Virus record (IMG/VR): IMGVR_UViG_3300028581_000010
Direction: 5' to 3' (one strand)
DNA from: a virus
Taxonomy: Duplodnaviria > Caudoviricetes
Length of the DNA stretch: 64,000 nt
This document shows, one piece after another, positions 9,100-48,271 of the stretch. The notes below the pieces were generated by a model. It saw nothing but the letters and a program-made list of their open reading frames with translations. It had not been told where the DNA came from and searched no databases. The translations under genes were made by a program, and so were the position numbers. Numbering within the stretch: the stretch's first letter is position 1; each line of letters opens with the position of its first letter.

Positions 9100-10323
9100 C
9101 TAGGAGCCGTCGAGATCCTCCTCTAGATTCGACTTCTTCTTGCGCTTCTTTTTGTTTGTTTGTTCGATTTCTCGCCTAGCGGCCTCACTAGGCATGTCGG
9201 GTAGCCCGAAGGCTTGCCGGCATATTTCCTTGGCCTGAGGACTGTTCTGGATGAGGAAACCCAGTTCGCCCTCCCTATATTTTTTGATCTTCTCTTCACC
9301 ACCCACGACGTGCTTAGTCTGGATGACACCTACCGCACCTGTTTCTGGGTCGATATACTCCGTTCCTTCTGTCTTCCAAGAGTAGTATCCACCTGCGTGC
9401 GAGCCCACGATATGTGGGTAATTAGGAGCCAGTGTGGCTCTTACGAGTGGGGAGTACCAATCTATGCCTCCCTCGATGTGGATGTCGAACTCGATCTTCT
9501 GGCTGTTGCCTTCTCTACCGAGCTTATTCCGCTTGACGGTCAATGTATGTATCGACCCTGACTTTCTCTGGACGCCGTTGCTATCCGGTGAAGTAACGTC
9601 CTTAATTCGAGCGACCTTGAATTGATAGGTCGAATTAAAGCGTTGAGCCTCACCACCGATGAGCGCCTCGGGCTTCTCTGTGCCGAACCCCTGCATGCCA
9701 CCAATCTGCTCGCGCAGCTGGTTCGTGGCTACAAAGATGACCTTTTCTGTTTCCAGGTATGGAATGACGTTCCTGTAGAAGTTAGCCATAAGCTTGGCAT
9801 GTTCGCCAACCTTTGTCTCACCAACCATGTCCTTGTCGCGTTCGTACTCTGTGCAAGTACCGGCGATGGAGTCAAGCGCCACCATAATGGGAGTGGTCTG
9901 CTCAGGATCGAACTTGGGCACGTTCATGATGATATTCTTACATAATGTCAGTGCCTGCTCTAGCGTGCGCGGATTGTGGTAGTGCACACGCTCATCATCT
10001 ACACCCTGCTTACGCATATAGTCGAAGTCTGGGGCCGACTCCGTCTCAATCCAGAACATCATGCCACCAGCCTTCTGGAATATCTTAGCCAGATCGAACA
10101 GAAGCGTCGTCTTAGAGCAACCCTTCTTGCCATAGATCAGGTAGCACCGACCGTAGGCCATAAACCTACGGTCAAATGCATACTCCAATAGAGGGTTGTC
10201 CAGCACTATACCAGTAGCTGGTGGCTCCTTCGATACCGGATTGAGGTCCATCTTCTCGTCAAACTTCTTATTGAACGAGGTCTTAATGGTCTCCAGGTAT
10301 TTCTTGAAGTTGTCTGGGTCCAT
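9100..10323 (-). CDS. recA: RecA/UvsX-like recombinase
   Basis: P-loop GKKGCSKTT, IETE, LDSIAG, FVATNQLR, GGEA.RF and VKRNKL. Confidence 0.9.
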   Translation of the reverse strand: MDPDNFKKYLETIKTSFNKKFDEKMDLNPVSKEPPATGIVLDNPLLEYAFDRRFMAYGRCYLIYGKKGCSKTTLLFDLAKIFQKAGGMMFWIETESAPDFDYMRKQGVDDERVHYHNPRTLEQALTLCKNIIMNVPKFDPEQTTPIMVALDSIAGTCTEYERDKDMVGETKVGEHAKLMANFYRNVIPYLETEKVIFVATNQLREQIGGMQGFGTEKPEALIGGEAQRFNSTYQFKVARIKDVTSPDSNGVQRKSGSIHTLTVKRNKLGREGNSQKIEFDIHIEGGIDWYSPLVRATLAPNYPHIVGSHAGGYYSWKTEGTEYIDPETGAVGVIQTKHVVGGEEKIKKYREGELGFLIQNSPQAKEICRQAFGLPDMPSEAARREIEQTNKKKRKKKSNLEEDLDGS

Positions 10324-10324
10324 C

Positions 10325-11383
10325 TTATTCCTCTGGTGTCTCTAGCAGTCTACGTGCCTGTTCCCGTGACAACCCTGCTATGGGGTTGGCTGGCAGCTTA
10401 GAAGCCTTTTTAGGGGCAACTGGGGCCGCAGGCTTGGGTGCTGAGAATGTGGGCTTCGCGACCTCGAAGTCGTCTTCCTCCTTAACTTCTTCCTCCACTA
10501 CACGCACAGGAGGGCTGACGTAGTCAACTTCTTGCTCTTCCTCGTATTCAGGTTCCGGCGGTCTAGCCAGAGGTTTCCTCGCAGGTGCCTTAGGGGCTAC
10601 CTTGATGACCTCTCTGGGCAAACCATCATAACCATCCATGCACTCGTTAAATACCTCACGCGAGTACATTTTGCGCAATCCTGCAATGATCTCTTCCGTG
10701 CTCTTGAACTGGAGTACGTCGTCCAAGTTATACAGATAGTCCGCATCTGCGAGCTTATCTGGTAGCTTGATCGCTTGACTTGGATCAGGTGCGATCGACC
10801 ACGGGTTGGAGCTATTCTCTTTCAGCTTCACGTGTACCGCTAGACAGCGCTCGGGATCATTGATGAGCGGGCGGTCATTACCATGCAGATCTTTCTCTGC
10901 CAGCCAGTTATGGAGCGAGTCCGCACCATTCTTTAGCGGTAGGTCGAGGACGTGGGCCCCTGCCTTTAGGTTGTTTGCGAACGCGACATTATATAGCACG
11001 CGCTGCGTGATTCTCCCGAAGTTGGGATACTTCTTGAACTTCTTACCATTCACATCTACCTCGCCTACAGCGGCTTCATCTGGATAGAGTAGCTTGAAGT
11101 TATTTGCAAAGTACTCGGCTGGATCTTCCGCCTTGTTGAGTACGATATATTTCTCTTTGTAGTTGTCGCCGAAGTTATCACGAATCGTGATCACCTTGAA
11201 CCACACACCGTTGCCGGCACCGTCATCTGTATAGCCGGGCAGGAAGTAAAGATATGCACCTTCCTGGTTTGTTGTCTTATTGAATACCGCGCGGCGCACA
11301 CCCTCGCGGATATACTGCGCACTATTGGAGCCTAACTGCATTTCCGACCCCTGGAATGTTTTCGATGGTTTTATAATCGCCAT
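10325..11383 (-). CDS. putative single-stranded DNA-binding protein (gp32-like)
   Basis: Directly upstream of recA. It has an aromatic-rich N-terminal domain and an acidic/Pro-rich low-complexity tail. The assignment is largely positional. Confidence 0.45.
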   Translation of the reverse strand: MAIIKPSKTFQGSEMQLGSNSAQYIREGVRRAVFNKTTNQEGAYLYFLPGYTDDGAGNGVWFKVITIRDNFGDNYKEKYIVLNKAEDPAEYFANNFKLLYPDEAAVGEVDVNGKKFKKYPNFGRITQRVLYNVAFANNLKAGAHVLDLPLKNGADSLHNWLAEKDLHGNDRPLINDPERCLAVHVKLKENSSNPWSIAPDPSQAIKLPDKLADADYLYNLDDVLQFKSTEEIIAGLRKMYSREVFNECMDGYDGLPREVIKVAPKAPARKPLARPPEPEYEEEQEVDYVSPPVRVVEEEVKEEDDFEVAKPTFSAPKPAAPVAPKKASKLPANPIAGLSREQARRLLETPEE

Positions 11384-11536: not shown

Positions 11537-12142
11537 TTATACCATCAGAATCTTTTTATCTGTGCGTTGACCACGCAGATAATTCAGGAAGGTTTGTAGC
11601 ATCATACCTGAGATGATGATGGGCAATGCATGCGAGATGTTCTCCTCTTTCTCCCATGCGAGCAGGCAGCCGCCTGTCTCCTTCGAGTCGTCGATGTACG
11701 GCTCCAGCTGGTTCTTAGGCAGTTCCGAGTTGAACAGCGCACCGGTACGTGACGTACAGCGGCCGTCGATCCAGAACGGAGCATCCTTGCCATGCTTCCA
11801 GCCATAGTTGTAGAGCATCTTGCGGAACTCCATGGAGTCCACACACGAGAACACAACATCATATTTCTTCAAGTCCTTCTCAGTCATGAATTTGGTGATA
11901 CCATTGACCACGAACTTCTCCTCGAGCACCTTCACCTTATGCTTGCCGACATCGTCGAGCGTAAAGCGCTGGTGCAGCAGGTTGGATGTATCCACAACGT
12001 CGTCGTCATAGATGTCAACCTCCATGCCGGAGTAGTCAAACTGCTTTCTGTTGTAGCCGTAGTCGAACAGGACCGCAAGCAAATTGCTTCCAATCCCTCC
12101 CGCTCCAGCAATGCCGATTTTCTTGATTTTCTTAATGTCCAT
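11537..12142 (-). CDS. ThiF/MoeB/E1-like activating enzyme
   Basis: KIGIAGAGGIGS, DDDVVDTSNLLHQ, SCVDSMEFRK, WIDGR and a candidate catalytic Cys in TGGCL. The start is at MDIKK. Confidence 0.93.
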   Translation of the reverse strand: MDIKKIKKIGIAGAGGIGSNLLAVLFDYGYNRKQFDYSGMEVDIYDDDVVDTSNLLHQRFTLDDVGKHKVKVLEEKFVVNGITKFMTEKDLKKYDVVFSCVDSMEFRKMLYNYGWKHGKDAPFWIDGRCTSRTGALFNSELPKNQLEPYIDDSKETGGCLLAWEKEENISHALPIIISGMMLQTFLNYLRGQRTDKKILMV

Positions 12143-12581
12143 TTGATAGGAGAGCCTCCATGGAGCTCTTGGGTAGATAGTAAATGTACAGGTCCTCGTA
12201 GGCCTCACCCATCCACTCGGAAGCAGAATAGTATCCGCGCTCCGTAGCATAGATGTAGTTGTACTTGAACCCCATAAACAGTTTGTTTAGGTCCAGCGAG
12301 CTTGGAGACGGGCTGAACGACGGGTGAGTGTGAAAGCTGCCGTGCAACTTCCATCCTTCCTGCACACGCGGTACGATCAGCTCACCGAAGTCTCCCTCGT
12401 GGGCCTCATATAGCCCAAGCGCTGTGGTCGAACCTGTGTATATGTTACGCAACTTGACAAACTCGAAGTCTTCGTCGCGATGCAGGAGTAATCCGCCCTC
12501 TTCTTCCGAGGACTTGCTGCACAGAGCAGCTGCTCTGTATAATTCTTGGGCTAGGTTGTAACTGATTCTTTCTCTAAGCAT
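12132..12581 (-). CDS. JAB/MPN+ (JAMM) metallo-isopeptidase
   Basis: EEEGG plus an exact H-x-H-x7-S-x2-D motif (HTHPSFSPSPSSLD). Confidence 0.92.
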   Translation of the reverse strand: MLRERISYNLAQELYRAAALCSKSSEEEGGLLLHRDEDFEFVKLRNIYTGSTTALGLYEAHEGDFGELIVPRVQEGWKLHGSFHTHPSFSPSPSSLDLNKLFMGFKYNYIYATERGYYSASEWMGEAYEDLYIYYLPKSSMEALLSNGH

Positions 12582-12643
12582 TATAGGTTTGGTTGTTGGT
12601 TATGCTGGGCCGCGGAGTCTCACCACGGCCCAGCCTGTCTCGT

Positions 12644-13021
12644 TTAGTACGCAGGGTATTCCTGCTTCTTGTGAACACCCATCTCTCCAAGGTGCTCATC
12701 GCCCAGTCCTTCCGGGTCAAACTCCTCGTCGTCGAATGCTGTGTCCCGTATTGGGTCGAACAGCAAGGCTTCGATGTCAGGATCGTCCATAATCTCCTTG
12801 TCAGCATTCTCGAGCTCCACAGCCACCGGCTGCAGTACGCTGGCATCTTCTTCTGCCGCGTAGATGCGATCCAACGCCTTCTCGAGGAACAACGCCAAGG
12901 CGTTCTCCACTTCGACTGGGTTGGTCTGCAGCCGCTCAAGCGCCTGTGTTATGGTTAGGGTTTCATCCAAGGCTGCTGTAAGCACCTCGGCCAATAGGTC
13001 GTCTTGTATTTCGATTTGCAT
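12644..13021 (-). CDS. highly acidic hypothetical protein
   Basis: D/E-rich 125-aa ORF between the 730-aa gene and JAB. Confidence 0.65.
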   Translation of the reverse strand: MQIEIQDDLLAEVLTAALDETLTITQALERLQTNPVEVENALALFLEKALDRIYAAEEDASVLQPVAVELENADKEIMDDPDIEALLFDPIRDTAFDDEEFDPEGLGDEHLGEMGVHKKQEYPAY

Positions 13022-15213
13022 TATGCTGGAATTAGGTTGTCTTTAATCTTAGCGATGTCTTCGATAACTGCGTCATCCGGCAGGGCAGCGAGAGCTGCAA
13101 GGCCGTTGTCACGTTCAGGGTGATAGTCATCGTGGGCGTTCTCAGCACCTGGCTGAGCATGACCCTTGAGCGTACCGATCTTGTTCTGAACTGCAGAATC
13201 ATTCTTTAGGGCGAGTAGCCGAGAAGCGATGTCATCGTAGCCAGCACCTTTGTAGTGATAGTCATTGACGATACATCTGTATTGCTGAGTGTCATAGTCA
13301 TACACCTTAGCATTCTCAACCACAACTGCATACTTGCGCAGCTTGCCTTGGACGATATACGCGTCCTTGCCCTTGAACTTCTCCATCACGGCACCAGTCA
13401 TCTTGATCGCAGCGTTCAAGAACTCCTTCGAGCGCTCGATAGCCTTGCTCTTGTTCTCGATAACCAGACCAACCACTTTCTCAATGTCCTTGAGTGTGAT
13501 CTTTGCCTTAACGACTTTGTTGCCGTCCTCATCCTTGGTAGTCTCGGACGTGGTATCGATCAGTGCCTGAGCGGTCTCCTTCCTGGCCCACTCGAAGTCA
13601 CGACGTTTGTAATCGTAGCCCTGGCGGCCGTACTGATTGTTCGTGCGCTTGTTGACGCTGTTGACCTTGGCAATGAGCGAGCGCAGCGATACACGCAGGC
13701 TACGTTCCTTATCAACCTCCAGCATGATGTGATGCTTCTCCGCATCGAAGTAGAACTTGAGCGCAGGTGCATTCAGCCCTGGTATCTCGTCGTTGTACTC
13801 ATCGTTCGTGATGTTCTTGTGAATCTTCACCGGCAGCCCGTTAGCGATGACGTCATGCCACTTGATGGACATGCGACTGGTCGCCTTGAGGAACAGCTTG
13901 TAGTCCTCTGCACTGCGGTAGCAGGACGCACGATGGATAACCTGCCCAATCTCGTCCTTGTTGATGCGCGTTCCGTTAACCTTGCGCTGGTGATCCTTCG
14001 TAATGGAGGCCTCGATGTCGATGCCGTTGATCTTGATTGCCGGTAGCTTGTACTCCTTGGGAGCCTCTTCGCCGGCTTTCTTCGCGGTAAACGCGTCAGC
14101 AGGGAGTGCTCCGTTGGCGAGCTTCGCCGTCAGCTCTCCACCAACCAGGTCGACGATCGTGTAGATGTCGAACTCGCCGTTGAAGTTCAGCTTGTTGTAG
14201 AGCACGTCGATCAGGTTTGGATACTCGACCGATACGTTCTCATATGTAGCTGTATCTTGCTTGATGGTGATGTCGTTGATCTTGATCTGCTGGATCTCAC
14301 CTGCCTTGAGCTTACCCACGACCACGAGGTTGGAGCTTCTGCGGTAGTCGTTCTCCATCTTTACATGGGCAGCGGCATACGCCTCCTTAACCTTCTTGGT
14401 CAGCTTCTTTTCCATACGCAGGCGTAGAATATCTCCGTCGTGCGAGTTGATGAAGCACTTCTTAACAAGCAGCTTGGTCAGCGCAGGCTGCAGCAAGCAC
14501 ATCAGCATGATGTGGGCTGTGTTGATGTCGTAGTTGTTCGTGACAATATACGACGGCTTGCCTAGCCGTGTTGCCGATGGCGCCTTCATGAGGAAGAAGC
14601 CCTTGTCTAGGTAGTCGTACAGCGGCTCAGTCTCCTTCACCATCATACACAGCATCGGAGAGTCACCGGAGTAGCTCACCTCAGTCCTGTTTGTGTCGAA
14701 GTGCTGACCTGTCAGAATACGATATGTATTTCCCTTGGACAGATGCTCAATAGGCTCGTGCTGAATCAGCGTCGGCGTATAGGCGATGTCCAGCTCCTGT
14801 GGCACCAGCTTGATGCTCTTGTGCAGGGCCGGTAGATCTTTCCGAATGTGCGTCAGCGTGAGGTTCTTCTGCGGAGCAGGGTAGTTCGTATTGGTGTTCT
14901 CATAGAACCCGCGTACGCCATACTCCACACCTCCGCCACCAGCGCTCTTGCGAATCTTGTCAGGAAGCTCCCTGTCGGCGGTTGTGAGCTTTAAATTGTG
15001 CAGAAACAGCGGTGAGCCGCCTGCTGCGAAGTATGCATGCATCTTGTGCGCGTCGGCAAAAGAGGCAGCCTCGAGATACAACACGTGAGATAGCCCGCCC
15101 TGCACTGTGTTGTTGTACTTAAAGTCAAAAACTACAGCGCCGTCAGACAACGCCCCTGAGGACTTGCTGAACGAGCTGATTAGCTTTTTAAATTCTGGTA
15201 ATGTTAATTTCAT
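13021..15213 (-). CDS. 730-aa hypothetical protein of the Ubl operon (candidate E2/E3-like or substrate)
   Basis: Long ORF between the Ubl and JAB genes. The C-terminal domain contains YRCIV...DDIASRLLALKND. Confidence 0.8.
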   Translation of the reverse strand: MKLTLPEFKKLISSFSKSSGALSDGAVVFDFKYNNTVQGGLSHVLYLEAASFADAHKMHAYFAAGGSPLFLHNLKLTTADRELPDKIRKSAGGGGVEYGVRGFYENTNTNYPAPQKNLTLTHIRKDLPALHKSIKLVPQELDIAYTPTLIQHEPIEHLSKGNTYRILTGQHFDTNRTEVSYSGDSPMLCMMVKETEPLYDYLDKGFFLMKAPSATRLGKPSYIVTNNYDINTAHIMLMCLLQPALTKLLVKKCFINSHDGDILRLRMEKKLTKKVKEAYAAAHVKMENDYRRSSNLVVVGKLKAGEIQQIKINDITIKQDTATYENVSVEYPNLIDVLYNKLNFNGEFDIYTIVDLVGGELTAKLANGALPADAFTAKKAGEEAPKEYKLPAIKINGIDIEASITKDHQRKVNGTRINKDEIGQVIHRASCYRSAEDYKLFLKATSRMSIKWHDVIANGLPVKIHKNITNDEYNDEIPGLNAPALKFYFDAEKHHIMLEVDKERSLRVSLRSLIAKVNSVNKRTNNQYGRQGYDYKRRDFEWARKETAQALIDTTSETTKDEDGNKVVKAKITLKDIEKVVGLVIENKSKAIERSKEFLNAAIKMTGAVMEKFKGKDAYIVQGKLRKYAVVVENAKVYDYDTQQYRCIVNDYHYKGAGYDDIASRLLALKNDSAVQNKIGTLKGHAQPGAENAHDDYHPERDNGLAALAALPDDAVIEDIAKIKDNLIPA

Positions 15214-15244
15214 TGGTTAGGTTGGTCTCCATGCCTCGGCATGA

Positions 15245-15279
15245 TAAAACAAAAAGGGTGGGGAAGTTATCCCCACCCT
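15245..15279 (-). terminator. intrinsic terminator downstream of the Ubl gene
   Basis: 10-bp stem AGGGTGGGGA/TCCCCACCCT with a 5-nt loop, followed by TTTTGTTTT on the minus strand. Confidence 0.8.
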
Positions 15280-15370
15280 CTTGTTCAAAAACTCACCCCC
15301 GATTACGCATAGCTGCTTGATACAGCCAGAGGCGGGGGGTGACGTAGTCAGTGGCCCTTAGGGCCGTACA

Positions 15371-15667
15371 TTAGAGCTTGTACAGAGCTGTGTAGAAGTC
15401 GTACGCCTCCTGGGCAGTACCACCAACCAGCACACCAGTCAGAAGGATCATCGGATCATTCTCGGCAGCGAGCTTGTTGCGGAGCTTATTGACGTTTGCG
15501 TTGTCGCGCACGTCAGCGCCCTCGAACTCGAACTTCTCACCGTTGATGAAGACCCAGCGTTGGTTCTTCTCGGCGTTATCGCAGATTGTGTCGACGGCGG
15601 CGTCGAGTTCTAGATCTGCTACTGTGGTGTGACCAGTGCGGTCAGCGATGTCGATTTTGTATGTCAT
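15371..15667 (-). CDS. ubiquitin-like (ThiS/MoaD beta-grasp) protein with a GG motif and a 15-aa C-terminal extension
   Basis: 98 aa from MTYKID. WVFINGEKF and a final strand DPMILLTGVLVGG are followed by TAQEAYDFYTALYKL. Confidence 0.78.
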   Translation of the reverse strand: MTYKIDIADRTGHTTVADLELDAAVDTICDNAEKNQRWVFINGEKFEFEGADVRDNANVNKLRNKLAAENDPMILLTGVLVGGTAQEAYDFYTALYKL

Positions 15668-16464: not shown

Positions 16465-17196
16465 TTATTTGTGGATAGGGAATCTTATATGCCGTATGGA
16501 CCCATCTTTCAGAGTTCTGTCTACGCAGGCACGGCATCTCAAACACGCACCACTATCCTTTGTGTTCTTCATCTTGCCTGTAATTTCCGGACAGACCAAC
16601 ACAGGCCTGTCGTTGAGTTGGGCAGGAAACTCGTCGCCCATGAACGCCACAGATATGTTCTTACAATCCTTATACTTCTCGTTATACTCAGCCAGCACCT
16701 CAGCTTGATTCACAGGGTCGCAGCTCAGCAGTATTGTAAGGTGCTCGCAGTCCTTCAGGGCATGGACAGCAAAAAGACTTCTGGTATACAGCCAAAACCG
16801 TATATCAGAATTCTTTTTGATGACCCTGCTCCAGGCGTGCGCATATGCGTCGTTGAATAGGTCTCCAGATGTGTGCAGCCTGAAATATGGTGAGCGGTCG
16901 CCGCCGTTTAAACGCCACTTTGTTACAGTGTTGTCCAGTATCTCAAACAGCTCCTCTGCCGTTTTATCTTGCAGTAGTGCAGTATTCTCGTCTTCAACCG
17001 CAGCGTAGCCCTTGTAGCGCTTTCGTAGAGAGGCTGCGTAGCATACCTTGAGGCAGCCACCTTTACCTTCTGTAGCACATGGACAGCTTCCTCCATCTTC
17101 TGGCTTGCCAGAACGTAAGCTGAACGTATTGAAGTGTCCGTCGTAACTTCTTACTTTTGAATTATTTGTTAATTTTAATGACTTGTATTTTTCCAT
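16465..17196 (-). CDS. GP88-like phage protein (Cys-rich, radical-SAM-related)
   Basis: TFSL..SCP....C...CYA, YFRLHTSGD, WLYTRS and C-terminal CP..C..C..C. Confidence 0.75.
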   Translation of the reverse strand: MEKYKSLKLTNNSKVRSYDGHFNTFSLRSGKPEDGGSCPCATEGKGGCLKVCYAASLRKRYKGYAAVEDENTALLQDKTAEELFEILDNTVTKWRLNGGDRSPYFRLHTSGDLFNDAYAHAWSRVIKKNSDIRFWLYTRSLFAVHALKDCEHLTILLSCDPVNQAEVLAEYNEKYKDCKNISVAFMGDEFPAQLNDRPVLVCPEITGKMKNTKDSGACLRCRACVDRTLKDGSIRHIRFPIHK

Positions 17197-41713: not shown

Positions 41714-41786
41714 TGGTGTCGGGGCGTGGAATCGAACCACGAAAAGCGAGCTTATGAAACTCGCTGGGGTGCCAACCCTCCCCGAC
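41714..41786 (-). tRNA. tRNA with CAU anticodon (elongator Met or Ile2), reduced D-arm
   Basis: Acceptor GTCGGGG/CCCCGAC-A-CCA, anticodon loop TT-CAT-AA and T-arm CGTGG-TTCGATT-CCACG. Confidence 0.85.
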
Positions 41787-41792
41787 ATAAAT

Positions 41793-41868
41793 TGGCTGTT
41801 CGTCTTGGACTCGAACCAAGAACCTTCGTCTTAACAGGACGAGACTCTGCCAATTGAGTTAACGAACA
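41793..41868 (-). tRNA. tRNA-Asn(GUU)
   Basis: Canonical 76-nt cloverleaf, loop CT-GTT-AA, G73 and encoded CCA. Confidence 0.95.
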
Positions 41869-41871
41869 GTG

Positions 41872-41991
41872 TTTACGGCTCAGGTCGTTAAGTACTTGCG
41901 TTAGGTGCGGTTTAAGCCCTCTGCTTTGGGCGCGCGCCCGTCCGAGAGCTGTTACGCTGGCCTCCGCTTTCCTCCCCTCAATGACCGTAAA
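41872..41991 (-). ncRNA. unassigned 120-nt rod-like structured RNA
   Basis: Nested helices TTTACGG/CCGTAAA, TCA/TGA, AGG/CCT, GCGG/CCGC, AGGCC/GGCTT and CTC/GAG. Confidence 0.55.
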
Positions 41992-42004
41992 GTTTTTGAA
42001 AGTC

Positions 42005-43051
42005 TTAGATGGGTCTAACGCCGGACAACTCTTCGAAGAGTTTGACGTCGGATCTTGGCATCGTGGGAAGCACGTCGGCCAGTTTATTGAAGTCGTTCGG
42101 ATCAAGTTCCATACCAAAGGCTTCCTCGTATGTATCCTTGCCAACCTTGCACAGGTCGTCGAACTTGTATTTATTGCCGCTCATCTCGATGTAGTTCAGC
42201 TCGGAAGCTGTCTTCTCGATAGAGAGCGTGAAGATTTTATCAACAGGGTCGCCTAGCAGCGATGCCACCTTGACGTTGTCGTAAGCTCCCTCCATGTTCT
42301 CGACATGGTAGAGCACCTCAGCAAGCTTCATAACCTCATCCATGCTGGTCATGTTGGACAGATCAGCGCGAATGTCGTTATACAGCTTCACGTTGGCTTG
42401 TTTCTTAAGCTTCGTGGATCTACGCCAAATCTCTGCGTCTAGCCCGCCGAGGTCAGGGTAAAACATGCCCGCATACTTACACACCAAGTCAGGCAGGTCA
42501 TCCACGTTGAGATCCTCTGCCGCCTTAACCATGTTTTTACAGGTGTCGACGCGGGTCTCAAAAGGGAAGTTTCTGATGTTACTGACAAAGTCTTCTGCTG
42601 CTTTCTCCAGGTCGGAGGCGGTCTTAACCACGTACAAGTCAAAGGATTGGTCTCCAACCTTGAAGTTGCACATTGTTTTGGGTTCGTAATCTGCTGCTGT
42701 TTTCTGGTTGCGCTCGGCGCTGTAGGCCTCCAGGTCTTCGGTAATTCCGAAGATGTCTGCGGCCTCTTTTATACGATTTTCGAGCTTGCAAACGTAGGCT
42801 TCTCCGTATATCTTCTTAATATCCGCCTGCTTGTCCAGAAAGTAGGCGTTAGAAACAAATACTCTAGATGGACTGTTTAATGGATAGATACGACGCTCTG
42901 AATCCGCAAAGGCCTCTTTTGGGAGCCCGCCGAGGGTCAGCATGTCGTCCACTTCTGCAGTCTTTACATACTCCGGAAGCTCTGCGTCCGCAAGGAACGA
43001 GTACAGCTGCTTGCTGGAATAGTCTGTTTGTTGGTCAAATGATAGTCGCAT
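42005..43051 (-). CDS. hypothetical protein (possible virion protein)
   Basis: Starts at MRLSFDQ, 7 nt after a TGTG-TATAAT element at 43068-43059. Confidence 0.7.
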   Translation of the reverse strand: MRLSFDQQTDYSSKQLYSFLADAELPEYVKTAEVDDMLTLGGLPKEAFADSERRIYPLNSPSRVFVSNAYFLDKQADIKKIYGEAYVCKLENRIKEAADIFGITEDLEAYSAERNQKTAADYEPKTMCNFKVGDQSFDLYVVKTASDLEKAAEDFVSNIRNFPFETRVDTCKNMVKAAEDLNVDDLPDLVCKYAGMFYPDLGGLDAEIWRRSTKLKKQANVKLYNDIRADLSNMTSMDEVMKLAEVLYHVENMEGAYDNVKVASLLGDPVDKIFTLSIEKTASELNYIEMSGNKYKFDDLCKVGKDTYEEAFGMELDPNDFNKLADVLPTMPRSDVKLFEELSGVRPI

Positions 43052-43067
43052 ATCCATAATTATACAC

Positions 43068-44357
43068 ATGAGTCCTAACGTCTTCAACTCCAAAATCAAC
43101 CTTCCGAGCGTAGTTTCCAAGCTAGGTTTCTCTACCTCAGACTACGAATTTATCCGTATGCCTGTCTTCGGGTGGTTCGCCAAGTCCAAAAACTCCGACT
43201 TCATAGGCAATATCTTCAACTTCTTCGAGCCCGAGCAGTGGCCCAGGCTGTTCAGAATCATCAGCAAGGACTTCTCCGACTGCTACGACTTCAAGCTGCC
43301 CTACTCAGAGTATGCCGAGAGAAAGCTCTACAAGGAGCAGCTGACGCTCATGGAGTACCAGTCTGCCTGGCTGCTATCCAAGCACGAGGCCCGGACGCAT
43401 AGAATACGCCACAAGGGCGACGTCTGGTACGTGGAGGACGTCCTCAAGGATGTAGGCCTTCCTGCTCTACTGGAGAACGAGATAGGCTACCTGAGCGACA
43501 CGGTCATAAAGACCTTTCCTAAGCTGGACCTTACTACCAAGCAGCGCTACCAGAAGGTTATGGTTGTGCCCACGTTCTGCACGCCCAAGCATATAGCGTC
43601 TCTGGAGGTCTGCCGCATCAAGTCCATGGACGAGAGGGAGCTGGTCATAGAGAACGCCGAGAAGGGCTGGTACGGTAAGCACAACGTCGAAATCGTCAAG
43701 AATATGGACGAGCTCAAGATCAAGGTGGGTAACACCTGGGATTACAAGTGTGATTACTGGAACACCAAGCCTATAGAGATCTCGGATTCCATTGAAACAC
43801 ACCAACTTATAAAGATCTGGAGCGAAGCCAACCATACAGCCTTCACAAGAAGTCCGATCGATCTTTTAGTGGGCAAGGAAGGCACGGGCGATATAAAGCA
43901 CCATGTCGCACTCCTCAGCCATGCTCAAATACAGGAGCTAGAAAAAAAGACCGACCAGAAGTTGCTGGACTTCTGGGTGAAGTCCAAGGAGCAGCAGTTT
44001 GTTGTACACGACAATACGTTCATCAAGAGAGGAACAGCGTATTACATCATCAAAAAGAACAAGGATGAGGAGCAAATCTCCAACTTCTGCCTGGATATAG
44101 ACAAGATCAAGAAAAAGACGGATGCGGATGGCGAGGAGACATTCTACTGGTGCGGCAACATTCTGCACAACCAGGACGTTATTCCGTTCGAGATGAGCGA
44201 TCGCTACTTCACGTCGTGCTATCTCTTCGCCAAGGGCATGCGCAAGCAGTTCATGTCACTAGGCATAGGCATCCCGTTCATCAACGAGAAGTACATTAGG
44301 CAGCTGCTCAGTCTTATACAGCTGACGTGCTTCAACGTCAAGATAGAGAACGATTAG
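43068..44357 (+). CDS. hypothetical protein (weak primase/DUF927-like resemblance)
   Basis: 429-aa ORF with good coding character. The family call is tentative. Confidence 0.7.
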   Translation: MSPNVFNSKINLPSVVSKLGFSTSDYEFIRMPVFGWFAKSKNSDFIGNIFNFFEPEQWPRLFRIISKDFSDCYDFKLPYSEYAERKLYKEQLTLMEYQSAWLLSKHEARTHRIRHKGDVWYVEDVLKDVGLPALLENEIGYLSDTVIKTFPKLDLTTKQRYQKVMVVPTFCTPKHIASLEVCRIKSMDERELVIENAEKGWYGKHNVEIVKNMDELKIKVGNTWDYKCDYWNTKPIEISDSIETHQLIKIWSEANHTAFTRSPIDLLVGKEGTGDIKHHVALLSHAQIQELEKKTDQKLLDFWVKSKEQQFVVHDNTFIKRGTAYYIIKKNKDEEQISNFCLDIDKIKKKTDADGEETFYWCGNILHNQDVIPFEMSDRYFTSCYLFAKGMRKQFMSLGIGIPFINEKYIRQLLSLIQLTCFNVKIEND

Positions 44358-44438
44358 GCGCAGCAGGACTCGAACCTGCACGTCCTGATGGACAAGGGAT
44401 TTTAAGTCCCTTGCGTCTGCCAATTTCGCCATGCGCCC
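44355..44438 (-). tRNA. tRNA-Leu(UAA)
   Basis: GGGCGCA/TGCGCCT-A, loop CT-TAA-AA, long variable arm. No encoded CCA. Confidence 0.95.
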
Positions 44439-44447
44439 GAGTTATTG

Positions 44448-44954
44448 CTAGCCTGGAGCTACCCACCAGTAAGGTGTGTTATTGATCTTTGCCCATTTCG
44501 CAAAGCGCCACTTCTCACCGATGTAGTAGTTTCTGTAGGCCTCGACTACGTCATCGGCGTTTTTGTACTGGGCTGGCATAGCCTGATGGAATGGCGTTAG
44601 CTCGCCTTCCGGAAGCATATGAATCATTTTCCGCAGGTGGTCAATACCAGCCTCACAGAAATGCGCCCTGTCGTATCTGGCGGTATACTCCCAGCATAGA
44701 CCGAGTGCGTGCTCCGAGGCCCACTTGAAGTTAGCCTGGTTAGTACCCACCCATAGCGTGCAAGGATGATGAGGATAGCTCTCCTTGAGAGGCGCTCCTT
44801 TAGCTGTCAGCGGCATCTGCGCCGGAGTGGCTCCGTACCGTATTACGGCCGAGCCGAGCTGCTGGTATAGCTCGACACACATCTTGACCACGTGCTTATC
44901 ACAGTGATAGTGCGCGGCCAGAATAGGGTCTTTGTCTAAGACGAATATGTTCAA
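44448..44954 (-). CDS. denV: pyrimidine-dimer DNA glycosylase (DenV/endonuclease V-like)
   Basis: TTG start gives (M)NIFVLDKDP..AA..HCDKHVVKM..E..Q, HHPCTLWV, and YR.YY..EK. Confidence 0.82.
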   Translation of the reverse strand: MNIFVLDKDPILAAHYHCDKHVVKMCVELYQQLGSAVIRYGATPAQMPLTAKGAPLKESYPHHPCTLWVGTNQANFKWASEHALGLCWEYTARYDRAHFCEAGIDHLRKMIHMLPEGELTPFHQAMPAQYKNADDVVEAYRNYYIGEKWRFAKWAKINNTPYWWVAPG

Positions 44955-45295
44955 CGCGGTGAGTATCCCTTGCAGCGAGCACACTGATCCATACGCAGCC
45001 CTCCATCCAGCACGCTCCTCTGTTCACCAACGAAGCCGCAATGAGGGCATACAGGACCTAGTGGTCCTACATCATTGCGACAATCCATGCAGAGTTCTGC
45101 TACGTCAAGTATCATTTTAGCGTTATAGACGGTGTCGCGGACGGTACCATCCTCAAGAACATCGTGGCGAGTAAACGTATACTCGGGAAATCGGTGAGCG
45201 ATCTCCACCATAGCTTCAAAGTTTGACGTTCTGCCGCAGGAGAGCGCATGCTCTATATGTTTTTCTAAGTTTATTGGGTCGATAATTATGTTCAT
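44951..45295 (-). CDS. hypothetical Zn-ribbon protein
   Basis: Three CxxC pairs. Begins 5 nt after tRNA-Ser. Confidence 0.55.
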   Translation of the reverse strand: MNIIIDPINLEKHIEHALSCGRTSNFEAMVEIAHRFPEYTFTRHDVLEDGTVRDTVYNAKMILDVAELCMDCRNDVGPLGPVCPHCGFVGEQRSVLDGGLRMDQCARCKGYSPR

Positions 45296-45300
45296 AGTTT

Positions 45301-45390
45301 TGGCGGAGACAAAGAGCGTTGAACTCTTAGTAGTCTTTAGCTACGGCGCTTTAGCAAAGCGCTACGAAAAACCGATATTCGTGTCGTCTC
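45301..45390 (-). tRNA. tRNA-Ser(GCU)
   Basis: GGAGACG/TGTCTCC-G-CCA, loop TT-GCT-AA and a long variable arm. Confidence 0.92.
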
Positions 45391-45413
45391 CAAGTTATTT
45401 GATACTGGAAAAA

Positions 45414-45488
45414 TACCCCAATCGAGGCTCGAACTCGAAGTCTCCAGGTTGAAAACCTAGCGTGTTAGACCAGTTACACTATTGGGGC
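45414..45488 (-). tRNA. tRNA-Glu(UUC)
   Basis: GCCCCAA/TTGGGGT-A and loop TT-TTC-AA. No encoded CCA. Confidence 0.92.
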
Positions 45489-45496
45489 AAAAGCTT

Positions 45497-45613
45497 CCTA
45501 CCGATTACTACGAAGGCGCCGATCAAGTTTGGACCTCTCTCGACATTGCCTTCCTGTTATTGTATTGGGCGAGCTACACATACTCAGTGTAACGGCCACA
45601 GGCGGATGGTAGG
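45497..45613 (-). ncRNA. unassigned ~117-nt structured RNA
   Basis: Closing stem CCTACC/GGTAGG, CGCC/GGCG and hairpin GTTACAC/GTGTAGC. Confidence 0.45.
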
Positions 45614-45640
45614 TTTACAACCGTGAACCAAAGTGTAGTA

Positions 45641-45762
45641 TGAGCGCGGCAGGATTTGAACCTGCATGACTAGCGACTGTTAGTGAATCCCAATATATAG
45701 CTAATACTATATACCCGTCTTTGTCTTATTATTTAGCGTCTTTACATTCCGCCACGCCGCTC
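45641..45762 (-). ncRNA. tRNA-like RNA with Leu-type D- and T-arms but an expanded non-canonical anticodon region
   Basis: TGGCGGAATGTAAAGACGC D-arm, GCAGG-TTCAAAT-CCTGC T-arm, GAGCG/CGCTC-A acceptor and a ~65-nt insert. Confidence 0.7.
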
Positions 45763-45786
45763 AAACTAACCACAGCAAAAATGTTT

Positions 45787-45892
45787 TGGCGGGGCTTCCG
45801 GTAGGGGCTTGGTAATCTCTAGCAACTTAAACCAATGATCCCCGCTTTACCGATGCTACGACCCGAAGCACTCGTGCTGGCCATGCCACGCC
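45787..45892 (-). ncRNA. unassigned ~106-nt rod-like RNA ending in CCA
   Basis: GGCG/CGCC, GCTTC/GAAGC, CGGTA/TACCG, GGGG/CCCC and TGGT/ACCA nested helices. Confidence 0.5.
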
Positions 45893-45909
45893 ACCAAATA
45901 ACTAAAAAG

Positions 45910-46430
45910 TTGTTGACCAAGATTAAAAGGTCCTGTTTACCCACGACAGGACAGGCTTCGGCTCCTTTCGGATAATGGCGCTATTTCCGCCTTACGCCTT
46001 GTCAGCAGGAGCCTAGGCTCCTGAGATTCTTACAAACATAAACTGATGAAACACCTCGATTTGACATACCTATACACCCGGAAGCGCCATAAGAGATTAC
46101 TCCGACCACTGGTGGCCGGTTGTATAACTCACACCTGCGTACAGGTGTACTTTGCAACTGGCGCAGTGTTACCTACGCCAGCTCTTTAAGCTTAGCTATG
46201 GACTTTAAATGAGCCTTCCTTACTTATACCTTGCAACCATAACGGATATGAGCCTTACTACCTTGCGAACTTGAGCCTTCAGCCTTGAGACATAGCACTC
46301 TGATGAGTGATATACCATAGGTTTGATACACGCTGAGAAAGCATGTTAGGTTTACAATTCCATGTAAGTTTCATATTGTCGATTATGAGTTCGCCAGATG
46401 AAAGCCACAAGGGCCTCCTCTAGTCTTTTC
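45910..46430 (-). ncRNA. candidate large (~500 nt) multi-hairpin ncRNA
   Basis: No ORF of 60 aa or more. It has at least five clean hairpins, an 8-bp long-range helix and repeated AAGG motifs. Boundaries are approximate. Confidence 0.55.
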
Positions 46431-46433
46431 TCT

Positions 46434-46605
46434 AACTGATTACGGATATGTCAAATCGAACTGTTTCAAATTGTGCAGGGCTATGTCCCTGCTGGGAGGT
46501 CTGTCGGCCTCATCCAAGGGGTTCTCTCCCCCTGTCAACTCTGGTATTAGCAGGTCTTGAGTTTTCCCTGTTTTAAACTGAGAACGACTACATGCCTGAT
46601 CAGTT
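46434..46605 (-). ncRNA. 6S-RNA-like 172-nt rod with a central bubble
   Basis: AACTGAT/ATCAGTT, ATGT/ACAT, AGTCG/CGATT, CAGGG/CCCTG, then a bubble, then CCTGCT/AGCAGG and an apical AGGGG/CCCCT. Confidence 0.55.
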
Positions 46606-46613
46606 TGAAAGTC

Positions 46614-46701
46614 TGCGCGAGGCGGGACTCGAACCCGCATGCTACTGTTATTTCGCGTCCGCCTCTAAAACGGAATTGTCTACCAATTTCAACACCCGCG
46701 C
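46614..46701 (-). tRNA. tRNA-Leu(UAG)
   Basis: GCGCGGG/CTCGCGC-A, loop TT-TAG-AG and a long variable arm. No encoded CCA. Confidence 0.92.
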
Positions 46702-47851: not shown

Positions 47852-48271
47852 TGGTGGAGGTAGCGGGAGTCGAACCCGCGTGTTCAATACTTCTCTAACA
47901 CCTCTACGTGCGTAGTTTGATATTATTTTCGACTGTGGTCTGCTATCAAACAAACGGTGCCACAGCTTAGGCAGACCCGTCTGCCAGGGTGCGGATTACC
48001 GCCATCTTTTACCACGATTGACGCCGAGCGCTTTTCTTCACTCAGCCAGGTTACGTGACATCCTGAGTTCGATGACTGTTACAGTCCGCTTACGCGGCGA
48101 GCAGTTCGCGATCAACGCTCCCGAAGGAGGCGATCATCGCGTCAGCTTCTGCAACCGTCATTGCTTGATCCATAGGATTAGCATTTAGTTTTTGTTAGCT
48201 TTCAAGGTGCCCCGCTAACGAACCCACACGCAGTGCTTCAATACATATTGAGTCGAAGCCAGTATACCCCC
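47852..48271 (-). ncRNA. ssrA: tmRNA (420 nt), tag ANPMDQAMTVAEADAMIASFGSVDRELLAA*
   Basis: 5' GGGGGTA..GGCTTCGAC and 3' GCGGGTTCGACTCCCGC-TACCTCC-A-CCA with G3.U70. Resume codon GCT at 48182 follows AAAAACTAAAT, and the tag ORF ends in AA*. Confidence 0.95.

Follow-up and report, generated by a model that had tools for sequence, protein, structure and literature searches.

A cassette of four genes, encoding a ubiquitin-like protein (Ubl), a protein of about 700 amino acids (aa), a JAMM/JAB metalloprotease and a minimal E1-like adenylyltransferase, is described here from the IMG/VR virus record IMGVR_UViG_3300028581_000010 (Duplodnaviria; Caudoviricetes), of which a stretch of 64,000 nucleotides, referred to below as the window, was analysed. 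The four genes form a conserved unit that is restricted to phages: it recurs across hundreds of their lineages, and cellular genomes hardly ever contain it. The observation is confirmed, and chance falls far short of explaining it. The reading favoured here, with slightly better than even confidence, is that the cassette is a self-contained, phage-encoded Ubl modifier system that conjugates its Ubl to proteins. The genes lie among five open reading frames (ORFs), all on the minus strand, within positions 11537-15667 of the window:

15371-15667, minus strand: pro-Ubl, 98 aa; predicted beta-grasp core at residues 1-83 ending LTGVLVGG, followed by a 15-residue tail (predicted helix)
15252-15282, minus strand: terminator-like hairpin between the Ubl stop and the start of the 730-aa gene; 13-bp stem with 7 GC pairs, then a T-run
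13021-15213, minus strand: conserved partner protein, 730 aa; C431 and C647 invariant, C-terminus DUF7737-like
12644-13021, minus strand: acidic ORF, 125 aa; lineage-specific filler, not a conserved component
12132-12581, minus strand: JAMM/JAB metalloprotease, 149 aa; E26/E27, H84xH86, S94, D97
11537-12142, minus strand: minimal E1-like adenylyltransferase, 201 aa; ThiF family, Cys159, Asp102

An AG-rich ribosome-binding site precedes the ATG start of the Ubl ORF. The JAB stop codon falls within the opening codons of the E1 gene, an overlap already reported in an earlier prediction made from the letters of the window (the original prediction). To judge from the sequence, the hairpin between the Ubl and 730-aa genes may allow the Ubl transcript to exceed those of the enzymes.

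Close homologues of the 730-aa protein number 92, many of them on contigs of 170-220 kb, and a profile search of 1.84 billion representatives for its family returned 496 clusters at E<=1e-3 and 347 at E<=1e-10. A comparison set of 31 loci, 26 of them from IMG/VR, was fetched through the ~700-aa protein. Ubl, JAB and E1 genes each stand beside it in 30 of the 31, the exceptions being cut by contig ends. The common order is PolA, GP88, (246-aa protein), Ubl, ~700-aa protein, (0-950 bp of variable sequence), JAB, E1, ~345-aa protein and RecA. In four distant lineages the four-gene set is reordered and lies in other replication contexts (RNR, RecU, sigma factor, another PolA). The orders are GP88, 370-aa ORF, large protein, JAB and E1 in the locus designated L036, where a free-standing Ubl was not found; large protein, Ubl-GG fused to ~200 aa, 66-aa ORF, JAB and E1 in L037; large protein, 69-aa Ubl ending LTGG-stop and E1 in L038; and large protein, 72-aa Ubl ending MGG-stop, JAB and E1 in L039. 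Related proteins of ~121-126 aa with the motif QGxWxST...STIGxL are encoded directly upstream of the large protein in L037 (5617-5982) and L038 (5640-6020) and may represent a lineage-specific fifth component.

Two scans covered 185,579 cellular species genomes: the first gave no match, and the second, with a subfamily profile, gave one, the 9.9-kb contig PWNH01000053.1 (L039). This contig, binned in an archaeal (Methanomassiliicoccaceae) metagenome-assembled genome, also carries PolA and a sigma-like gene and looks like a mis-binned phage fragment. These counts, with the 26 IMG/VR loci, the 170-220 kb contigs and the PolA, RecA and tRNA context, uphold the original claim that the genes belong to the virus, and the association of Ubl, JAB and E1 with the large protein recurs across distant phages. 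Within the replication/recombination module the cassette acts as a fixed core set of genes and does not resemble a variable anti-defence island.

The operon had been proposed to comprise five genes, which holds for the Ubl, 730-aa, JAB and E1 genes. The acidic protein, for which jackhmmer gave 0 matches in the 31 loci and which was a singleton in an all-against-all comparison of gap ORFs, was rejected as a component, having no homologue at any of the loci and no family match. The commonest occupant of the gap between the ~700-aa and JAB genes is a gene for a ~215-aa DNA_pol_B_exo2/RNase_H-like exonuclease, found in 12 related loci (e.g. L003, 9649-10293, and L004, 9105-9746) and absent from the window, where the acidic ORF takes its place. 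The ORFs of the gap were likewise rejected as parts of the system.

The 98-aa protein had been described as a beta-grasp Ubl with a GG motif and a propeptide, and at the level of structure prediction it has this fold. An AlphaFold2 model from an alignment of 24 distinct orthologues (predicted local distance difference test, pLDDT, 83) has the order beta-beta-alpha-beta-beta-alpha-beta, with GG at residues 82-83 and a short tail helix. The best 50 Foldseek matches in the PDB were all ubiquitin, SUMO or other Ubls (best E 5.7e-3; template modelling (TM) score 0.34-0.47), with ubiquitin and SUMO ranked above ThiS and MoaD. The ESM Atlas returned three phage clusters (proteins of 67-88 aa, TM up to 0.78) followed by ThiS, RnfH and ubiquitin clusters, and across Foldseek, VIA and the Atlas the matches include ubiquitin, SUMO, ThiS and MoaD. 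The scores are individually modest and the match lists uniform. The Gly-Gly is invariant in the 24 orthologues and in three distant ones. It is followed by nothing in three lineages, by 1-15 unrelated residues in most, and by fused domains of 105 aa in L001 and ~200 aa in L037. As far as sequence alone can tell, such variable tails and fusions are the pattern of ubiquitin precursors that are cut after GG by a protease; the whole domains behind GG recall the ubiquitin fusion precursors of eukaryotes. The Ubl already ends at GG in L013, L020, L021 and L039, yet the JAB motif is intact there, which argues that the JAB does more than remove a propeptide.

The JAB and E1 identities of the original prediction were confirmed by profile matches and by conserved catalytic residues. 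The JAB protein matches Pfam Prok-JAB (E 1.5e-7) and has the zinc motif E...HxHx7Sx2D, with E26/E27, H84, H86, S94 and D97 conserved in 27 orthologues. Its nearest PDB sequences are the MPN protein 2kcq, AfJAMM and JAMM1, and its best NCBIfam match is a weak one to desampylase (E 0.0023). The E1, of ~200 residues, matches Pfam ThiF (E 1.7e-17) and contains the nucleotide loop, Asp/Asn-Arg-Gln-type motif, catalytic Lys and Mg-binding Asp of the E1-like superfamily. GAGGIGSNL, D43/D46, NLLHQ, K69 and C100-V-D102 are conserved at a level of at least 90% in 27 orthologues, in which R107 is also kept. Rhodanese domain and CxxC pairs are lacking. Cys159, likewise at least 90% conserved, lies 57 residues past the Mg-binding Asp102, a spacing that, counted along the chain and not from a structural alignment, we take to be that of D127 and the crossover-loop C184 in E. 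coli ThiF. Both enzymes look active from their residues.

Twelve residues of the large partner protein (R165, D203, C431, G459, G623, Y628, C647, D660, R665, N671, D672 and T681) are invariant among 122 diverse members, with C431, C647, D203 and D672 conserved at 100%. Beyond sub-threshold matches to DUF7737 and DUF3605, the Ubl, the 730-aa protein and the acidic protein have no match in Pfam, NCBIfam, PHROGs or PADLOC. The DUF7737 (PF24879) match is the only family signal for the ~700-aa protein, sub-threshold but consistent. It covers the C-terminal ~110 aa (585-690), is seen in all 30 of the close members and in 14 of the 42 diverse ones with per-genome E of 2e-5 to 5e-4, scores consistently 17-22 bits against a gathering threshold of 27, and spans profile positions 5-63 of 103 only. 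No DUF4132 profile match was obtained. In the full-length model (pLDDT 78) residues 574-690 form a long helix and a four-strand meander, with Cys647 eight residues on, and then helices. The top AFDB and Atlas fold matches of this model are DUF4132/DUF7737 proteins, MolR/YehI-like bacterial proteins of uncharacterised function that form the only family resembling the ~700-aa protein; we know of no link between them and Ubl systems.

The C-terminal domain also gave repeated weak structural matches to UBC/UEV domains, one of them a bacterial E2, and in a Foldseek search of Swiss-Prot residues 346-683 aligned to the whole of BRE (BRISC and BRCA1-A complex member 2; E ~1e-2), which consists of two tandem UEV domains. 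Foldseek against the PDB found no match for the whole model, profile searches with the C-terminal domain found none among PDB sequences, a feature search of the ESM Atlas returned nothing, and the model given there was of poor quality. Whole-genome questions were put to five IMG/VR relatives estimated to be 93-100% complete, and no E2 family sequence match was found anywhere in them. An E2-like function, read from the full-length model only, is possible for the ~700-aa protein, with the balance tilted against it. Three viral proteins of ~416-452 aa in BFVD (A0A516M0H5, A0A516MG04 and A0A516LSW3) are matches of the 730-aa model, with E of 1e-7 to 1e-8, and are close in length to the uncharacterised protein of the PRTRC cassettes considered next.

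All 12 tblastn matches of the E1 to plasmids were annotated PRTRC ThiF (~30% identity). The best NCBIfam model was also PRTRC_ThiF, at 59.3 bits against a cutoff of 144.75, and the second-best matches were ThiF. The gene order on PRTRC plasmids is ParB, protein E, protein C (Prok_Ub), an uncharacterised protein of 437-475 aa, protein B (Prok-E2_D) and ThiF. Like the phage cassette, this is a collinear series of Ubl, large uncharacterised protein, one further gene and E1, carried by a mobile element and adjoining genes for DNA replication or partition. The PRTRC Ubl, however, is a Prok_Ub protein with a single terminal Gly, whereas the phage Ubl has GG; the gene before E1 encodes Prok-E2_D in the former and the JAB protease in the latter; and the PRTRC carrier is a plasmid or integrative and conjugative element with ParB, while the present cassette is phage-borne without ParB. 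The phage Ubl, JAB, ~700-aa protein and neighbours matched no NCBIfam PRTRC model (TIGR03735-03742 set), hhalign against PRTRC E2_D, Prok_Ub and the large protein gave probabilities <=0.3%, and Prok-E2_D is absent from the five relatives. With the E1 below the PRTRC_ThiF cutoff and the accompanying PRTRC proteins not found, the cassette falls outside the PRTRC class. The PRTRC cassette is probably operon type 6d of Iyer, Burroughs and Aravind (2006), and no functional characterisation of it was found in the literature searched.

From the observed gene content, motifs, predicted fold, co-occurrence and phage restriction we propose a modifier model; all of its chemistry is inferred, as are its targets and the part played by the ~700-aa protein. 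The Ubl would be made as a precursor and cut by the JAMM protease after the invariant Gly-Gly. The minimal E1 would adenylate the freed C-terminal glycine and may hold the Ubl as a thioester on Cys159. The activated Ubl would pass to the ~700-aa protein, acting either as an E2/E3-like carrier through Cys647 and/or Cys431 or as an obligatory first acceptor, and then to protein targets, which to judge from the neighbouring genes would belong to the replication/recombination machinery. Removal of the tag would fall to the JAMM protease as well. Alternatively, conjugation might need the E1 only, without the ~700-aa step, as in archaeal sampylation. The archaeal SAMP/UbaA/HvJAMM1 system and Thermus TtuB/TtuC are similar in having a small GG-ended beta-grasp protein, a single MoeB-like E1, a JAMM protease and no E2, and differ in doubling as sulfur carriers and in having no dedicated ~700-aa partner. 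UbaA is larger than the phage E1 and has CxxC zinc motifs, and all sequence similarity between the cassette and sampylation proteins is marginal.

Protein conjugation is favoured because sulfur enzymes are absent, the E1 has PRTRC affinity, domains are fused after GG, and the JAB is retained. With no recognisable E2, conjugation to proteins in place of sulfur carriage is only the more probable reading, and host sulfurtransferases could feed a thiocarboxylate route. A bolder form of the model makes the ~700-aa protein an unrecognised class of Ubl-transferring enzyme, with tandem UEV/UBC-like modules and a C431/C647 thioester relay, which together with the pro-Ubl, the JAMM protease and the 200-aa E1 would complete a phage ubiquitination-like pathway tagging replication/recombination or host proteins during infection; in this full form the proposal is doubtful.

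It is unlikely that the Ubl is instead a sulfur carrier, adenylated by the E1 and converted by host sulfurtransferases to a thiocarboxylate, with the two-Cys ~700-aa protein inserting the sulfur (e.g. into a nucleotide, DNA or tRNA) and the JAB trimming the precursor or freeing an adduct like Mec+. The E1 is minimal and ThiF/MoeB-like, with ThiF as its second-best NCBIfam matches, but it has no rhodanese domain and its nearest relatives come from the E2-carrying PRTRC cassette. ThiS and MoaD occur among the structural matches of the Ubl, but are outranked in Foldseek by ubiquitin and SUMO. A JAB acting with tailed Ubls is known from the CysO and QbsE pathways, but the large domains after GG in the phages are more like ubiquitin fusion precursors. 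The lack of a recognisable E2, a persulfide relay possible through the two invariant Cys, and the Cys-rich GP88 protein as a constant neighbour would also suit a sulfur carrier. The CysO/MoeZ/Mec+ and QbsE/QbsC/QbsD systems resemble the cassette in combining a GG Ubl, sometimes tailed, with a JAMM protease and an E1; their E1s carry or recruit rhodanese and their genes adjoin a sulfur-accepting enzyme (CysM, quinolobactin genes), none of which was found in the five related phage genomes. Rhodanese, cysteine desulfurase, PP-loop ATPase, MoaE, ThiG and MnmA (models PF00581, PF00266, PF01171, PF02391, PF05690 and PF03054) are absent from these relatives, control genomes being positive. A sulfur donor and acceptor enzyme within the same element were thus not found, though host enzymes could substitute.

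The original prediction had also suggested that the virus may counter host Ubl-based immunity. In the form considered here, the Ubl, E1 and JAB would decoy or reverse host Bil or type II CBASS (cyclic oligonucleotide-based antiphage signalling system) immunity, or tag host defence proteins for inactivation. The analysis lends it no support and makes it distinctly improbable. Host Bil and CBASS do use E1/E2/JAB chemistry, and PADLOC gave weak matches of the JAB and E1 to the CBASS JAB and E1-E2 models (best E 5.8e-5 and 6.5e-5), but these cover generic motifs only, and the Ubl and ~700-aa protein match no defence family. The cassette is present in every relative as a fixed replication/recombination core, and reversal of host tagging would need a deconjugase alone. 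As a whole the original prediction is partly supported, being correct on the parts and only probable on the chemistry. Of the likenesses to known systems first proposed, that to PRTRC holds through the E1, that to Cap2/Cap3 is marginal only, and none was found to Bil components. Bil (BilABCD) and type II CBASS Cap2/Cap3 are encoded by the host, serve its defence and include a recognisable E2, either fused or as a separate protein, and Bub operons combine oxyester chemistry with a serine protease (PMC11601596). The phage cassette differs from all three in having no recognisable E2, in being phage-encoded and in its partner protein. It is very hard to credit that the E1 acts like MccB or PaaA on the C-terminal end of the small protein, giving a nucleotide-peptide or cyclised product, with the ~700-aa protein as a processing or export partner: MccB is the nearest PDB sequence to the E1 (E 0.004), but the match is limited to the Rossmann nucleotide-binding motif (residues 5-79), the substrate would be a folded 83-residue beta-grasp with GG and not a short peptide, and the conserved JAMM protease and post-GG fusions fit Ubl processing.

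In the literature searched, only one other Ubl and JAB pair is described from phages, TAPI (Ubl) and TAPK (JAB+NlpC) in the lambdoid tail modules of lambda and T1 (PMC1779556). That pair has no E1 and belongs to a tail module, with the Ubl fused to a tail-assembly domain, whereas the present cassette has an E1 and belongs to the replication module. E1-like genes have been reported in Asgard viruses (10.1101/2021.07.29.454249). ThiF-like genes also occur in the replication modules of a crAss-like Kolpuevirus and of FpV4-type Flavobacterium phages; that of Flavobacterium phage FpV4 (L032, NC_041872.1, 3629-5561) matches the E1 profile at 3.7e-13 over nearly its full length. Just upstream of it FpV4 encodes a 423-aa protein with a weak Prok-JAB match (E 0.0076). 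The ThiF-like locus of FpV4-type phages yielded no detectable homologue of the Ubl or of the ~700-aa protein. A literature search, largely without subscription journals, found no paper describing the phage cassette. The cassette thus far stands as a new form of the Ubl/E1/JAB theme that is specific to phages and whose partner protein is widely conserved and has no annotation.

Downstream the cassette is flanked in the window by a conserved 352-aa protein and RecA (9100-10323), and upstream by a 246-aa basic protein, a GP88-family Cys-rich protein and a UDG-fused PolA. The 352-aa protein (10325-11383, minus strand) has an acidic, Pro/Ala-rich tail and lies between E1 and RecA in 29 of the 31 loci. 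It has no family match in Pfam, NCBIfam, PHROGs or PADLOC and may be SSB-like or a recombination mediator. The GP88-family (PF17338) protein (16465-17196, minus strand) precedes the cassette in 27 of the 31 close loci and recurs in the distant L036; it could be functionally linked to the cassette (Fe-S or zinc?) or be a mere member of the replication module. The window further contains five tRNA genes (41714-46701) and an adjoining tmRNA identified by ARAGORN (47852-48271, minus strand) with a long, unusual tag peptide, ANPMDQAMTVAEADAMIASFGSVDRELLAA.

Among 50,697 GenBank phage records, blastn found no DNA relative of the window and tblastn no match to the 730-aa protein, and a PolA search of GenBank phage records yielded only a 4-kb fragment. 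By these comparisons the source phage is without a cultured relative. The DNA of the window is present in ten lake-water metagenome runs, eight of which were not flagged as possible assembly sources, and the locus is absent from the RNA runs searched. The source is a large uncultured lake-water phage.

In the literature searched, the characterised bacterial Ubl conjugation systems (type II CBASS, Bil and Bub) are weapons of the host against phages. Here the same chemistry appears as a fixed core of many phage genomes, beside polymerase, SSB-like and RecA genes. The four-gene system is compact and directly testable in E. coli whichever reading is correct. If the Ubl were a sulfur carrier, the cassette would point to an unrecognised thiolation step in phage nucleic-acid metabolism. 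If it is conjugated to proteins, a new E2/E3-type enzyme would be defined, which might illuminate the PRTRC cassettes and the DUF4132/DUF7737 proteins, and bacterial viruses would be putting Ubl tagging to use in their own programme, as viruses of eukaryotes do with ubiquitin.

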